A DNA stretch of 64,000 nt from an uncultured Gemmatimonadales bacterium (lineage in GTDB: Bacteria > Gemmatimonadota > Gemmatimonadetes > Gemmatimonadales > Gemmatimonadaceae): the NCBI GenBank assembly GCA_963793305.1, contig CAWBZV010000003.1, positions 672,001 through 736,000 of the forward strand, given 5' to 3'. Shown here in pieces: positions 35,861 through 39,462 of this stretch; position 1 is the stretch's first letter; the number at the start of each line of letters is the position of its first letter. The notes under the pieces were generated by a model that did no database searches, was not told where the DNA came from, and worked only from the letters and a program-made list of their open reading frames with translations. Made by a program: the position numbers and the translations under genes.

Positions 35861-36009
35861 CGGTCGGGAGAGTGTGTGGTCTCTCCTGGCGAGCGTCAAG
35901 TAACGCTGCAAAGAAAAACGTATGACGCGGGCTCCCAGCGGCGCTCCCGCGCCGCAGAGAGCCAGGTCGGTTGGACAACGCTCGGCTACGCCTCGCTATC
36001 TTCGTTTCC

Positions 36010-36969
36010 GTGCCGAACGTATGGAGGGCGGTGGGGAGGAGCGCCGAGGGCAGTTCGCATCGGCGGGCGAAGCTCCCGAATCAGGATGCGCTCCGACTGT
36101 GGAATCCACACGGCGACGGGCAATCGGTGATCGTCGCCGTCGCCGACGGCCACGGGAGCGCCACGCATTTTCGCAGCGCGACGGGTTCGCGGTTCGCGGT
36201 GGAGGTGGCCGAGCGGGTGTTGCGCGATCTCGATGGCGCGTTGCGCGCGGGCGGCGCGCTGGACGCTGAGCGCGAGCAGTGGATTCGGAAGGAGATCGTC
36301 TCGCGCTGGCGTGCGTGCTGTATCGCGGACGCCGAGGCGAACCCGTTCACGTCGGCCGAGGAGGTACGTCTGAGCGGAGCGGGCGCGCGCGACCAGATCT
36401 TCGATCGCGCGCTGGCCTACGGCTCGACGCTGCTCGCGGGGTTAGCCACCGACGGGCGCCTCGTACTGCTGCAGATCGGCGACGGCGACATCCTCGCGGT
36501 CGATGCGGCGGGATCCCAGTTCCGTCCTTTCCCCCGCGACGCTCGTCACGTCGCGAACCTCACGACGTCACTCTGTCTCCCGGACGCGGTCGACAACGTC
36601 CGCGTGGCGTCGCTCTCGCCGAACACGATCTCCCTCCTTCTCTTCGCGACCGACGGCTACGCCAACTCCTTCGCCTCAAGCGAGGCTTTCGAGCGCGTCG
36701 TCGGCCCGCAGATTCTCTCACAGGTGCGCGAGCGGGGGGTCTCCTGGGTCTCTCAGGTTCTTCCGAGCTCCCTCAAAGCCGCGGCCGAGCGTGGCAGCGG
36801 CGACGACGTGACGCTCGCGATTCTCACATGCGAGGACGCCCCAGCCGGAGCCATTGCCCCGGGGCAAGGTCGCAGCGATGCACCGGTGACGCTCAGCGGG
36901 CTCGTGGTCATGCTGGGCGTGCTGCTCGTGGTCGGGTTGTGTCTCTGGCGAGTACTGCTGCCCCGTTGA
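36010..36969 (+). CDS. PP2C-family Ser/Thr phosphatase with C-terminal TM helix
   Basis: G.SH....PNQDA, VADGHGS, QIGDGD, TTSLC, ATDG, GDDVT. Confidence 0.9.
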   Translation: MPNVWRAVGRSAEGSSHRRAKLPNQDALRLWNPHGDGQSVIVAVADGHGSATHFRSATGSRFAVEVAERVLRDLDGALRAGGALDAEREQWIRKEIVSRWRACCIADAEANPFTSAEEVRLSGAGARDQIFDRALAYGSTLLAGLATDGRLVLLQIGDGDILAVDAAGSQFRPFPRDARHVANLTTSLCLPDAVDNVRVASLSPNTISLLLFATDGYANSFASSEAFERVVGPQILSQVRERGVSWVSQVLPSSLKAAAERGSGDDVTLAILTCEDAPAGAIAPGQGRSDAPVTLSGLVVMLGVLLVVGLCLWRVLLPR

Positions 36970-36973
36970 CGGG

Positions 36974-37030
36974 AAAGACGAAACCCCGGGGAATCCTCCC
37001 CCGGGGTCACGCGGCAGCCCAGGAAGCGAC
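36974..37030 (-). ncRNA. Putative small antisense RNA 1 (anti-anticodon-arm, AGG/GGG variant) with intrinsic terminator
   Basis: Minus strand GCTTCCTGGGCTGCCGCGT + ACCCCGGGGG-AGGATT-CCCCGGGGT-TTCGTCTTT; promoter immediately upstream. Confidence 0.65.
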
Positions 37031-37034
37031 TGAC

Positions 37035-37062
37035 AATCTAGGTCATGCTCCGGCGCAATCAA
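37035..37062 (-). promoter_or_regulatory. Sigma-70-type promoter of sRNA 1
   Basis: TTGATT-16 bp-TAGATT. Confidence 0.6.
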
Positions 37063-37083
37063 CGTGCAACATTCCACGTCCAC

Positions 37084-37142
37084 AAAATGCGAAACCCCGG
37101 GGAATCTTCCCCCCGGGGTGACGCGGCAGCCTCGCAAGCAAC
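37084..37142 (-). ncRNA. Putative small antisense RNA 2 (20/20 complementary to the adjacent tRNA, positions 21-40) with intrinsic terminator
   Basis: Minus strand GCTTGCGAGGCTGCCGCGTC + ACCCCGGGGGG-AAGATT-CCCCGGGGT-TTCGCATTTT. Confidence 0.72.
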
Positions 37143-37145
37143 TAT

Positions 37146-37174
37146 AATTTAGGCCGCTCTCACAGCGTGGTCAA
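37146..37174 (-). promoter_or_regulatory. Sigma-70-type promoter of sRNA 2
   Basis: TTGACC-17 bp-TAAATT. Confidence 0.68.
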
Positions 37175-37201
37175 CGTGTAATCACGCACGGCGAACTAGC
37201 G

Positions 37202-37287
37202 TGCCGAGGACGGGATTTGAACCCGCACGGCCCTTTCGAGCCAGCAGCTTGCGAGGCTGCCGCGTCTACCAGTTCCGCCACCCCGGC
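37202..37287 (-). tRNA. Non-canonical tRNA: tRNA-Leu body with Ala anticodon CGC
   Basis: GCCGGGG acceptor / CCUCGGC-A73; D-arm GCGGAACUGGUAGACGC; anticodon arm GCAGC-CUCGCAA-GCUGC; long variable arm GGCUC-GAAA-GGGCC; T-arm GCGGG-UUCAAAU-CCCGU; CCA not encoded. Confidence 0.93.
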
Positions 37288-37368
37288 ACCTCGCGTGCTG
37301 GGCGAACACTGGGAATACTGCGACACAGTAGCCAAGAAAAGCGCACCACGACTAGTCAGCGGGCGAAG

Positions 37369-37397
37369 AGTATAGCGAGTCTCCGCCACGCCGTCAT
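37369..37397 (-). promoter_or_regulatory. Putative promoter of the tRNA gene
   Basis: ATGACG-17 bp-TATACT about 80 nt upstream of tRNA G1. Confidence 0.45.
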
Positions 37398-37452
37398 CGT
37401 TGAGTTGCGAACCGTATCGTTAAGCACTGAGCGATCTACAACGAGTCGAGCG

Positions 37453-39462
37453 TCAGCGCAATCCTTGGCCTGCGCTTGTCGTTCCAAGCTGCTGCTCGCC
37501 CCAAATGTAATGCCCGAACCAGTCCAGGTTCTCCTGCATGACCGATCGTTGCTGCTTGGGTTTGTCGATTGGGTGCCCGAACCCGGGATACACGACCATG
37601 CGCACCGGCACGCCCTTATCGCGAAGCGCCTGATAGAGCTCGAACCCATTCGGGATGGGCACGCGCTTGTCGCTCCCCCCATGCTGTATCAGCGTAGGAG
37701 TCTTCGCGGTCTTGATGTACGTGATGGGCGACGTCTTCTTGTAGATCTCCGGATCATCCCACGGCGTCGCGTGGAGATACTGTCGCGTAAAGGGATGGAT
37801 GTCGGTATTGACATAGTAGGTCATCCAGTCGGAGATGCCCGCCCCGACCGAGACCGCCCGGAACCGATCGCTGAACGTGGTGATGAACGCCGAGATGTAC
37901 CCACCTTCGCTCCACCCCATGGATGCCACTCGGCTCCGATCGACGAACCCTCGAGCGATGAGATAGTCGACGCCAGAGATGACGTCGGCATAGTCCCCGA
38001 CGCCCAAGTTGCGCACATTGAGCGCCCGGAACTTCTCGCCGTATCCGGCCGAGCCGCGATAGTTCGGCCTCAGGATAACGGCGCCTTTGGAGGCAAAGAG
38101 CTCGACGGGATAGTATCGATCCGCGCCGAGCGTGGTGCGATCGACGCCGGTCGGCCCGCCGTGGATGACGACGAGCAGAGGGTATTTCTTGGTGGAGTCG
38201 AACCCAGGCGGCGTGATGAGCACGCCTTCGACGGCCGCGCCGTCGGTGGATTTCCACTGCACGAGCTGCCGTCGGGCCGACTTGAACGCCGACAGCTGGT
38301 CCCCCATGGTTGTAATCGCTTTCGGCGCGAACGGTTTGATGTCGGAGACGCCGATCTCCGGATACGCATTATCCCCGGCCGCGACGAACGCGCACGGTGC
38401 TCGCGTGCCGCGCGAGCGAGAACTGGCCGGCGATGCGCTTGGGATCGGAGAGCGTCTCGACGGTGCCAGACTTGGGATCGACGCGAGAGAGCACCTGGTA
38501 GGTACGCTCAAGCGGTGAGAAGTAGATGCCGTCCTTGTCCCAAGCGAACGGCGACGCATTCTCGTCGAACGACGTGGTGATCGCACGCGGCGTACCACCG
38601 TTCGCACTCACCACCGCGATGACCGTGTTCGTGTAGTAGAAGTACGGACTCCCATTGGCGGTCGAGAACGCGATCTCGTTCCCGTCCGGCGACCACACGG
38701 GGTTCGTATTGGGGCCGCCGGCCTCGACGATCTTCTTGACGCTCTTGTCGGCGACGGTGACGACGTAGATGGCGGCGGTGTTGGACGAGCCGAGGTCGGG
38801 ATCGCGCTGTGCGGAGAACGCGATGCGGGAGCCGTCGGGCGACCACGCGTATGAGCCGACGGTGAACTGGTCGCCCTCGGTCAGCCGCCGCGGCTCGCCG
38901 CCGGCCGCGTCGACGAGCCACAGGTGGCTCATCGAGTAGTCGCCGCCGATGACCTGGATGTCGCCGTAGGTACTATCGCGATCTTTGCGCGCTTTGGATT
39001 TCGGGTCGCGACTCACGAACGCGATGCTGCGTCCATCGGGCGACCACTCGAGCTCCGAGACGCCGGTCTCGACGCGCGTCAGCTCTCGCGCTTCGCCGCC
39101 GTTCGGCGCGATGACGTAGATCTGCGTCGAGTCCTCGAGCTTCCCGCCGGGCAGCGCGACGGGCCGCGTGGAGAGGAACGCGATCCATTGCCCGTCGGGC
39201 GACCATTTCGCGTCGAAGCTCGACCCTTTGCCGCTGGTGAGCTGCACGCGCTGTGTGCCGGCGGCGTCCGCCAGCCACAGCTCGCGCTCGAACGCATTGG
39301 CCTCCCAGTTCGTGTGGGAGACTTCGTACGCGACCCACTTTCCGTCGGGCGAGATGCGCGGCGCATTCGCGCTTTTCATCTCCAGGGACTGGTCGATCGT
39401 GGGAGCCTGAGCGTGGCGGGGAGTGCCGCACCGAGCACGAGTACAATCGCGAGTTTTCGCAT
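37453..39462 (-). CDS. S9 family peptidase (PD40 propeller + prolyl-oligopeptidase domain), frameshifts near 39410 and 38390
   Basis: Signal MRKLAIVLVLGAALPA; WSPDG repeats; IHGGP, PNYRGS.GYG, GWSEGG, D.RVP, GH. Confidence 0.9.

Follow-up and report, generated by a model that had tools for sequence, protein, structure and literature searches.

A conserved orphan guide beside a leucine-type tRNA(CGC) and its putative anti-anticodon RNA in a Gemmatimonadales bacterium

Why should a tRNA locus carry, next to a small-RNA unit antisense to the anticodon arm of its own tRNA, a second unit that seems to be written for another anticodon? The question is raised by a 64,000-nucleotide (nt) stretch of the genome of an uncultured Gemmatimonadales bacterium (the window, to whose positions all coordinates refer), in which a tRNA with a leucine-type (Leu-type) body and the anticodon CGC is followed by a proximal unit, U2, and a distal unit, U1, all on the minus strand. 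We found that U1 is a conserved orphan guide that does not co-vary with the resident tRNA. The best explanation, to which we give roughly even credence, is that U1, a paralogue of U2, is another small-RNA gene with a promoter and a terminator of its own, acting as an orphan antidote within a module made of a miscoding tRNA and an anti-anticodon RNA. The module comprises the following elements.

37202..37287, minus strand: class-II tRNA with a Leu-type body and anticodon CGC, 86 nt (ARAGORN; Rfam tRNA model RF00005, 55.1 bits against a gathering score of 29)
37084-37174, minus strand: U2, whole unit (promoter, guide, terminator), the first unit downstream of the tRNA
37120..37139, minus strand: U2 guide, 20/20 complementary to tRNA positions 21-40
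37146..37174, minus strand: U2 promoter-like site TTGACC, 17 nt, TAAATT (9/12 matches)
37084..37119, minus strand: U2 terminator hairpin with arms CCCCGGGG and a U-rich tail (fold -29.6 kcal/mol, z -2.9)
36972-37062, minus strand: U1, whole unit (promoter, guide, terminator), the second unit, beyond U2
37009..37028, minus strand: U1 guide, reading GCTTCCTGGGCTGCCGCGTG, complementary to the stem GCAGC plus the loop C(C/U)(A/G)GGAA
37035..37062, minus strand: U1 promoter-like site TTGATT, 16 nt, TAGATT (8/12)
36972..37008, minus strand: U1 terminator, a 12-pair hairpin (8 G-C) with a T-run (hairpin plus T-run at 37008-36982 in the terminator scan; fold -29.1 kcal/mol)

On the tRNA, the U2 guide runs from the 3′ side of the D stem through the 5′ half of the anticodon stem and the anticodon loop to positions 39-40, with 19 Watson-Crick pairs over tRNA positions 22-41, and its duplex with the tRNA was computed (RNAduplex) at -47.8/-49.2 kcal/mol, compared with -36.1 for the next best tRNA. 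For U1, the plus strand at 37009-37027 reads ACGCGGCAGCCCAGGAAGC and is 16/19 identical to tRNA positions 22-40; the differences are confined to positions 33 (U>C), 34 (C>A) and 36 (C>G), as the initial annotation of this locus had read them, and the inverted repeat as a whole extends over 24 nt at 79%. Over positions 22-41 (20 nt) the U1 guide makes 16 Watson-Crick pairs and one G.U pair with the resident tRNA, retaining 13 nt against the D stem and anticodon stem. The anticodon that it implies is AGG and, with G.U pairs allowed, the guide suits either AGG or GGG, the two anticodons that had been proposed for it on the GCAGC stem. In the family of modules described below, the anticodon complement of the guide matches the resident anticodon; U1, mismatched at positions 34 and 36 and forming a G.U pair at 33, is accordingly an orphan, non-cognate unit. 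The two units are paralogues, forming a 51-nt direct repeat of 75% identity with a 112-nt period. A promoter scan of the region returned two sites against 0.2 expected. The U1 terminator lies 13 nt past the stop codon of a convergent PP2C-type phosphatase gene, and that of U2 is variable at 2/34 columns among four orthologues.

The fine structure of the units recalls the tRNA in other ways as well. The 5′ arm of the U2 terminator (CACCCCGG on the minus strand; window 37112-37119) is also complementary to tRNA positions 2-9, several other guides run on into the antisense of the 5′ side of the D arm (GTTCCACC/GTTCCGCC in L002, L010 and L011), and the units look as if they were inverted tRNA 5′ halves from which the D loop has been deleted.

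How do the two units behave when the tRNA changes? A metagenome scan anchored on the junction between hairpin and guide returned nine loci, six of which we rejected as chance matches in coding DNA. The other three (L306, L308 and L301) are syntenic with the window, having the same leader, the same PP2C gene end and two units each. Flank identity among the resulting four alleles, given here as stem/anticodon, is 90-93%.

Window: tRNA GCAGC/CGC; proximal unit implies GCAGC/CGC; distal unit implies GCAGC/AGG (C33)
L306: tRNA GCUGC/CGC; proximal unit implies GCUGC/CGC; distal unit implies GCAGC/AGG (U33; loop CUAGGAA)
L308: tRNA GGAGU/CGC; proximal unit implies GGAGU/CGC; distal unit implies GCAGC/AGG (C33)
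L301: tRNA GCCGU/UGG; proximal unit implies GCCGC/UGG; distal unit implies GCUGC/CGC

Variation in the tRNA is focused in the anticodon arm (9/18 columns against 4/68 elsewhere; Fisher p = 4.8e-5, four alleles), and the proximal guide follows it. Across the four alleles, 97.5% of cells between proximal guide and tRNA are paired, six pairs have changed on both sides, and none of 500 shuffles reached either the paired share or the covariation score; the proximal guides bind their own tRNAs at -40 to -48 kcal/mol. An assembled contig of run X5, carrying an L306-type allele, has an A29>U change in the tRNA together with the mirrored change in U2. This co-variation indicates that the pairing between guide and tRNA is under selection. 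The distal guide, in contrast, does not track the tRNA: 83.8% of cells are paired, there are no compensatory pairs, and 435 of 500 shuffles are as good. Position 36 of the resident tRNA is unpaired with it in all four alleles and position 34 in three, and the AGG distal guides bind their resident tRNAs at -32, -28 and -22 kcal/mol.

The distal guide is nevertheless conserved in its own right. Among the three loci in which it implies AGG, only 2/20 of its columns are variable, compared with 20/39 in the promoter and 11/19 in the spacer, and one of these two sites is a G/A opposite position 33, where either base pairs with U. Both promoter hexamers and the terminator of the distal unit persist among these three loci (the hexamers of U1 are kept in L306, and also in L301, and read TTGATC/CAGATT in L308). 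In L308 the distal guide still spells GCAGC, although the tRNA and the proximal unit are GGAGU. In L301 the distal guide is letter for letter the proximal guide of L306 and binds the L306 tRNA at -45.3 kcal/mol, which means that an orphan can match the allele resident in a sister strain. The suggestion in the initial annotation of an orphan antitoxin directed at a sister allele is thus upheld in part: U1 is an orphan whose sequence is conserved among sister strains, and the L301 orphan matches the L306 resident, but a tRNA with the GCAGC stem and AGG or GGG was not found in the collections examined. What had been observed in the sequence is confirmed, and the interpretation built upon it partly supported.

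How widespread is this arrangement? Loci were gathered by BLAST of the locus against 41 relatives together with ARAGORN, by a strict pattern in 401 genomes of the order and from 18 fetched regions; further loci came from a scan of species-representative genomes (at least 121 loci) and from a metagenome scan. The strict pattern matched 18 of the 401 genomes, a reversed-pattern control none, and among the matches listed the family is mainly Gemmatimonadaceae/Gemmatimonadales. With identical tRNAs removed, the pooled set held 152 class-II tRNAs with a Leu-type D arm, comprising 141 with a non-Leu anticodon and 11 normal Leu tRNAs. Guides were sought as the best 20-nt complementarity to tRNA positions 22-41 within 420 nt, and a module was counted at 15/20 or more Watson-Crick pairs. 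The best complementarity proved bimodal: 62/141 tRNAs with a non-Leu anticodon reach 15-20 pairs, and the 11 normal Leu tRNAs reach at most 14. In 59 of the 62 modules the guide lies +40 to +76 nt downstream on the same strand, and in the other three about 200 nt upstream. U2, which starts 61 nt downstream of its tRNA on the same strand and bears a guide to its own anticodon, has the layout of these modules. Cognate guide-tRNA pairs average 18.2/20 compared with 12.4 for non-cognate ones, and the unit of the tRNA itself is the best or joint-best partner in 56/62 cases. A scan for the promoter, loop signature and hairpin gave 83 matches on the tRNA strand and four on the opposite strand.

By anticodon, the modules number 26 for CGC, 12 for GGC, six for GCG, four each for GUC and GGU, two each for CUC, GGA, CAC and GAC, and one each for UGG and AGC, and two borderline units stand at the right place beside tRNAs with AGG (L008) and GCC (L277). 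The anticodon-diversified tRNA variants that the initial annotation had implied do therefore exist, in the form of Leu-body tRNAs with matching units for 11 anticodons, in addition to the borderline AGG and GCC. In three genomes of one genus, near-orthologous tRNA bodies bear CGC, CUC and CAC, and the guides follow. The anticodons track abundant codons: CGC corresponds to GCG (rank 1), GGC to GCC (rank 3) and GCG to CGC (rank 7), and the codons GUC, GAC and GAG rank 5, 9 and 10 in this genome. A further 77 deviant tRNAs have no unit; they belong mostly to other phyla and carry other anticodons (e.g., UUA, ACC and UGA), and we have taken them to be other things. Orphan units arise elsewhere too, as indicated by tandem modules on a 959-base contig of a Gemmatimonadales metagenome-assembled genome (MAG; L187), where a tRNA(CGA) with a T arm interrupted by about 40 nt and its unit and a tRNA(CGC) with its unit are accompanied by a third module, in which only a 3′ remnant of the tRNA stands beside a unit implying CAC.

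Several members of the family show peculiarities of their own. In one family of the order, represented by L151 (genome G099) and L158, the tRNA is preceded at about 200 nt by the guide unit, and the entire module, with the 3′ end of the flanking gene, is tandemly duplicated with the anticodons CGC and CAC. L189, in a Gemmatimonadetes MAG, has a tRNA(GCG) module with an extra upstream unit implying GAC between inverted repeats of about 60 nt, which hint at a mobile or hairpin-forming element. L162 (G001:C90) has two units. The second, some 200-260 nt downstream of its tRNA, carries a guide complementary to the entire D arm (positions 8-26); the D arm is near-identical in normal tRNA-Leu, and this guide might also touch ordinary Leu tRNAs. 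Several deviant tRNAs (L004, L169 and L174-L176) have C33 in place of the near-universal U33, which could weaken decoding. In other phyla (L179-L299), Leu-type class-II tRNAs occur in Alphaproteobacteria, Saccharibacteria, Bacteroidota, Acidobacteriota and two archaeal MAGs, with the anticodons UUA, UCA and CUA (readers of stop codons), UGA, AGA, ACC and CCA; none has an antisense unit among the matches listed.

What would the resident tRNA do in the cell? Its anticodon, at 37251-37253 on the plus strand, would read the alanine (Ala) codon GCG. Its other features are those of a leucine tRNA: discriminator A73, a long variable arm and a Leu-type D arm (3-bp stem and GG placement). The D arm and acceptor stem are almost identical to those of the genome's own Leu tRNAs, with the first 26 nt nearly the same, and the nearest cellular tRNAs in the genome are Leu(CAG) at 74% identity and, close behind, Ser(GGA) at 73%. 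In place of a Leu anticodon (NAG or YAA) it has CGC. The acceptor stem begins G1-C72, C2-G71, C3-G70, and its sole wobble pair is G5-U68; lacking G3:U70, and having a class-II rather than a class-I body, the tRNA is not expected to have Ala identity. Normal genes for tRNA-Ala(CGC) are present in the same genome, as is the full set of five normal Leu isoacceptors. Bacterial leucyl-tRNA synthetase (LeuRS) does not read the anticodon, and from this independence we infer that the resident tRNA is charged with leucine by LeuRS.

The genome carries three Leu-body tRNA(CGC) genes, all on one contig and each with a downstream unit antisense to itself. The other two (C3:451773-451859 and C3:636248-636334, both plus strand) lie outside the window; one has a standard cognate guide to the anticodon arm, and the unit of the other is antisense to the variable arm and partly to the D arm, skipping the anticodon arm. 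One of the three units in the genome follows the diverged stem of its own tRNA. Six 79-100-nt "tRNAs" called by ARAGORN (C3:412684, C3:616291, C12:141242, C12:205543, C14:171327 and C5:831649) are probably false, being GC-rich and coding-like and having no tRNA D or T loops.

The region upstream of the resident tRNA is also conserved.

37288..37397, minus strand: conserved leader and possible tRNA promoter, with the motif TGTGTCGCAG about 40 nt upstream and a sigma-70-like ATGACG, 17 nt, TATACT

Among four orthologues 10/83 columns of this leader are variable. The motif (T/C)GTGTCGCAG or GCGTCGCAG recurs 30-45 nt upstream of many deviant tRNAs of the family; in the window (37320-37345, minus strand) it is preceded by TTGGC with a -24/-12-like spacing. 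Judging from these motifs, the tRNA may be transcribed from a specialised promoter that differs from the sigma-70-like ones of the guides.

Because LeuRS ignores the anticodon and the anticodons of the family aim at the commonest non-Leu codons, the simplest mechanism would be a miscoding Leu-tRNA held in check by an anti-anticodon small RNA. The Leu-type tRNA(CGC), once transcribed and leucylated, would insert leucine at GCG, the commonest codon of the genome. The 5′ 20 nt of the U2 RNA would pair with the tRNA from the 3′ side of the D stem, along the 5′ half of the anticodon stem and into the anticodon loop; the tRNA might thereby be unfolded or masked, or be marked for cleavage. The tRNA and U2 would then act as an RNA toxin and an RNA antitoxin, or as a tightly gated miscoding device; here and below, toxin, antitoxin, neutralisation, protection and immunity are names for presumed roles. 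The 17-nt anticodon arm would be a fast-evolving address, and U1 would bear the address of another allele, GCAGC with AGG or GGG. U1 may have been kept from an allele that preceded the present CGC state, or kept against an allele that still circulates, and these readings are mutually compatible. A parsimonious history would start from an ancestral GCAGC/AGG tRNA whose unit was duplicated; the tRNA and the proximal copy would have moved to CGC and later to other stems, while the distal copy retained the old address. Its retention might be forced by post-segregational logic, or favoured for as long as the old allele circulates. We can extend this proposal to a polymorphic, all-RNA toxin-immunity system of Gemmatimonadales, in which missense Leu-tRNAs are directed against the commonest codons, the anticodon arm serves as the address and orphan RNAs protect against past or circulating alleles, giving allele replacement, addiction and possibly strain competition or phage defence by base pairing alone; this wider picture is possible, but we hold it tentatively and with some doubt.

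Several findings weigh against these proposals, beginning with the missing target. A tRNA with the GCAGC stem and AGG or GGG was not found in the 92%-complete assembly of the organism itself or in five genomes of the same genus, nor, by exact pattern, in IMG/VR viral contigs (0 matches), and the metagenome scan, which would have caught the cognate unit of a GCAGC/AGG tRNA, gave no such tRNA. The search for the predicted loop in a tRNA-Leu fold, which had been proposed as a check, gave a divided result: a Leu-body tRNA(AGG) with the loop CUAGGAA is present in a genome of the same family (L008/L243), with its own, borderline, guide, but its stem is CGUGU, and none on GCAGC was found in the genome, metagenome or viral sets. 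Within the genus, the body-specific pattern occurs in the organism's own genome only (1/6). Apart from its own template, U1 has no perfectly pairing site in the genome, and the tRNAs score at background. An AGG anticodon would moreover read CCU, a rare codon (rank 53, 2.8 per 1000), which is a poor fit to a toxin aimed at abundant codons.

The remaining points concern the elements themselves and the samples. The U1 promoter, at 8/12, is below the threshold of the promoter scan, which did not report it, and the U2 terminator was not reported by the terminator scan, its T-run falling short of the scan's requirement. The match between U1 and the tRNA is by itself not rare, as 109 sites in the genome pair with the U1 guide at two or fewer mismatches when G.U is allowed; U1 rises above chance because it is a paralogue of U2 and because three syntenic metagenome loci conserve it together with its promoter and terminator. 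Only four alleles are known for this locus. The 62 modules were chosen by complementarity, so that their per-position pairing (positions 27-40 paired in 92-100%, with 2-6 pair types per position, and the anticodon triplet paired in 62/62) is conditional on that choice; bimodality, the fixed position and strand, and the scan for promoter, loop and hairpin support the family independently of it. Many family members are mutually related, and the counts overstate independence. The neighbours of the module include no mobile or defence genes. Finally, run X12, the sole RNA run to share any of this stretch, consists of assembled contigs rather than reads and is silent on expression and on anticodon heterogeneity; it has a single contig here, on a neighbouring gene (37394-37567), and none on the tRNA or the units.

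Might U1 simply be a decaying leftover, functionless and with a drifted guide, either of the tandem duplication of U2 or of the unit of a former allele? The 75% identity of the two paralogues 112 nt apart, the absence of a target for U1 from the genome, the weak 8/12 promoter and the example of L187, where loss of a tRNA can leave an orphan unit, are all in keeping with such a relic. Decay is hard to reconcile with three strains that diverge by 7-10% in their flanks and yet differ at 2/20 guide columns as against 31/58 in promoter and spacer, with hexamers and terminator persisting and pairing to U33 unaffected by one of the two substitutions in the guide. Nor does a relic account for L308, whose distal guide stayed GCAGC while the tRNA and the proximal unit moved to GGAGU, or for L301, whose distal scaffold holds a different but intact guide, namely the cognate guide of a sister strain, which is not the pattern of decay. 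We therefore consider a relic unlikely, although it is the rival that we take most seriously. The units might otherwise be silent donor or archive cassettes, with the anticodon arm of the tRNA gene exchanged against the inverted 20-nt guide by short-patch conversion or template switching, and U1 storing the AGG state. That the guides are inverted copies of the tRNA arm, and that alleles of the locus differ almost only in that arm, would follow naturally, and the distal unit of L301, with its guide content replaced and its distal-type promoter kept, suggests patch-wise exchange between units. A silent cassette has no need of the promoter-like site and terminator that each unit possesses, however; the tRNA matches the proximal unit in 4/4 alleles and the distal unit never, the copies are inexact (neither U32 of L306 nor position 26 of L308 has a mirrored counterpart), and the homology spans just about 20 nt. 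We regard cassettes as highly improbable.

Another alternative dispenses with toxin and antitoxin altogether. The tRNA could belong to a device for regulated miscoding or for a non-ribosomal use of Leu-tRNA (e.g., stress-induced diversification of the proteome, or a leucine donor kept off the ribosome), with U1 as a weaker second regulator acting through its 13-nt match to the anticodon stem and D stem. Bacterial tRNAs for deliberate mistranslation have been described (tRNAProX; PMC11415595, available portion), the module sits among housekeeping-type genes, and the second unit of L162 targets the D arm of the same tRNA. With the resident tRNA, U1 of the window retains a pairing energy of -32 to -33 kcal/mol, but this is no better than its score for unrelated tRNAs (-33.2 against -32.8), and in L308 the distal guide binds the resident tRNA at just -22.1 kcal/mol. 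The distal guide also fails to co-vary with the tRNA, and the sporadic occurrence of the module (18/401 genomes of the order by the strict pattern), together with the rapid turnover of alleles, is more in line with a selfish or conflict element than with a core regulator. This device seems to us improbable, less so than silent cassettes and more so than a relic. We also considered a viral origin and rejected it: a loose D-arm pattern in viral contigs caught mostly ordinary phage tRNAs (His, Gln and Asn), a class-II-specific pattern gave 45 loci with no cognate guide (best 13/20), and two further patterns gave 135 loci with just one Leu-type class-II tRNA (L361, CGC), without a guide. L361 stands on a 35-kb IMG/VR contig of 70% GC, and its tRNA has an odd acceptor end.

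The setting of the module is ordinary. The immediate flanks are the following genes.

35971..36969, plus strand: PP2C-type phosphatase gene, the convergent flank (PF13672, E 2.9e-39)
37453..38607, minus strand: S9 prolyl-oligopeptidase-family gene, the flank upstream of the tRNA (PF00326, E 2.5e-54)

These, together with genes for a tetratricopeptide repeat (TPR) protein and a kinase nearby, are ordinary chromosomal genes. Compared with 19 related loci by tblastx, the flanks of the window have no genes in common with them except for weak matches to L002. At gathering scores Rfam recognised only the tRNA, and at E values up to 1 just chance-level matches to small RNAs (14-20 bits); it holds no family for U1 or U2. 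Runs X2, X3, X5 and X12 are assembled contigs, and none covers 36948-37071, the region of U1.

If the orphan-antidote reading is right, a complete tRNA would be a programmable poison and a 20-nt RNA guide its antidote. RNA-only toxin-antitoxin biology would gain a new toxin mechanism, deliberate codon-specific miscoding, and natural small RNAs would be seen to switch off a single tRNA species by pairing with its anticodon arm. Polymorphic toxin-immunity logic, with orphan antidotes and allele turnover, would operate with a specificity readable from the sequence, and U1 would turn one odd tRNA into evidence for allele diversification. The module would also bear on the question of how a cell can survive the evolution of an anticodon switch, and might offer parts for controlled mistranslation in synthetic biology.

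How does the module compare with known systems? In type I toxin-antitoxin systems, a short cis antisense RNA with its own promoter and terminator presents a single-stranded or loop-borne seed and achieves specificity by base pairing. The units described here share this cis antisense layout with own promoter and terminator and, in computed folds, the single-stranded or loop-presented seed. They differ in that there is no toxin open reading frame and the target is a tRNA, the only strong partner of the guide, in place of the mRNA of a small toxic peptide, and in that the antisense gene is an inverted partial copy of its target, lying downstream on the same strand, rather than an overlapping transcript. 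T-box leaders sense tRNA charging and control a downstream gene, pairing with 3-4 nt and the acceptor end; they too read a tRNA through its anticodon loop, whereas the guides described here would invade the anticodon and D stems with about 20 nt. Polymorphic toxin loci (contact-dependent inhibition (CDI), Rhs and colicin-type) encode protein toxins and immunity proteins, deliver the toxins between cells and accumulate orphan immunity genes. The resemblance lies in a hypervariable specificity segment, an adjacent cognate antidote and extra antidotes matching the alleles of other strains; the difference is that everything here is RNA.

CreT toxins, according to the available portion of PMC8501985, sequester tRNAs. 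As in these type VIII (CreTA) systems, both partners of the module would be RNAs, the toxin would act on translation and the antidote would be encoded beside it. The architecture and the co-variation of the module fit type VIII, in which an RNA toxin that arrests growth is countered by an RNA antitoxin, with toxicity and rescue being presumed here. The presumed toxin is a complete, foldable miscoding tRNA rather than an mRNA-like sponge, and the antidote would act by antisense pairing with the anticodon arm, whereas that of CreTA, a degenerate CRISPR-like guide, directs Cas proteins to repress transcription. In 36800-37500, which takes in both guides, no CRISPR-like repeats were found, and the wider window was not screened for cas genes. 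The tRNAProX of Streptomyces and Kitasatospora has a body whose identity does not correspond to its anticodon, and in some cases its position 33 is unusual (PMC11415595, available portion). That system, tRNAProX/ProRSx, offers a natural bacterial precedent for a mismatched body and anticodon, and C33 recurs in several members of the present family. The body here is Leu-type class II and not Pro, no synthetase gene stands beside the module, and the module has an anti-anticodon small-RNA gene; the words "antisense" and "toxin" do not occur in the available portion of the review (PMC11415595). In a literature search that mostly left out subscription journals, we found no description of a Leu-body missense tRNA with an antisense partner, or of a tRNA as a toxin. 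The module lacks a defining feature of each of the systems compared, namely type I, CreTA, tRNAProX/ProRSx and polymorphic toxin loci, and the finding points to a widespread and previously undescribed RNA-RNA module that may constitute a variable poison-and-antidote locus.

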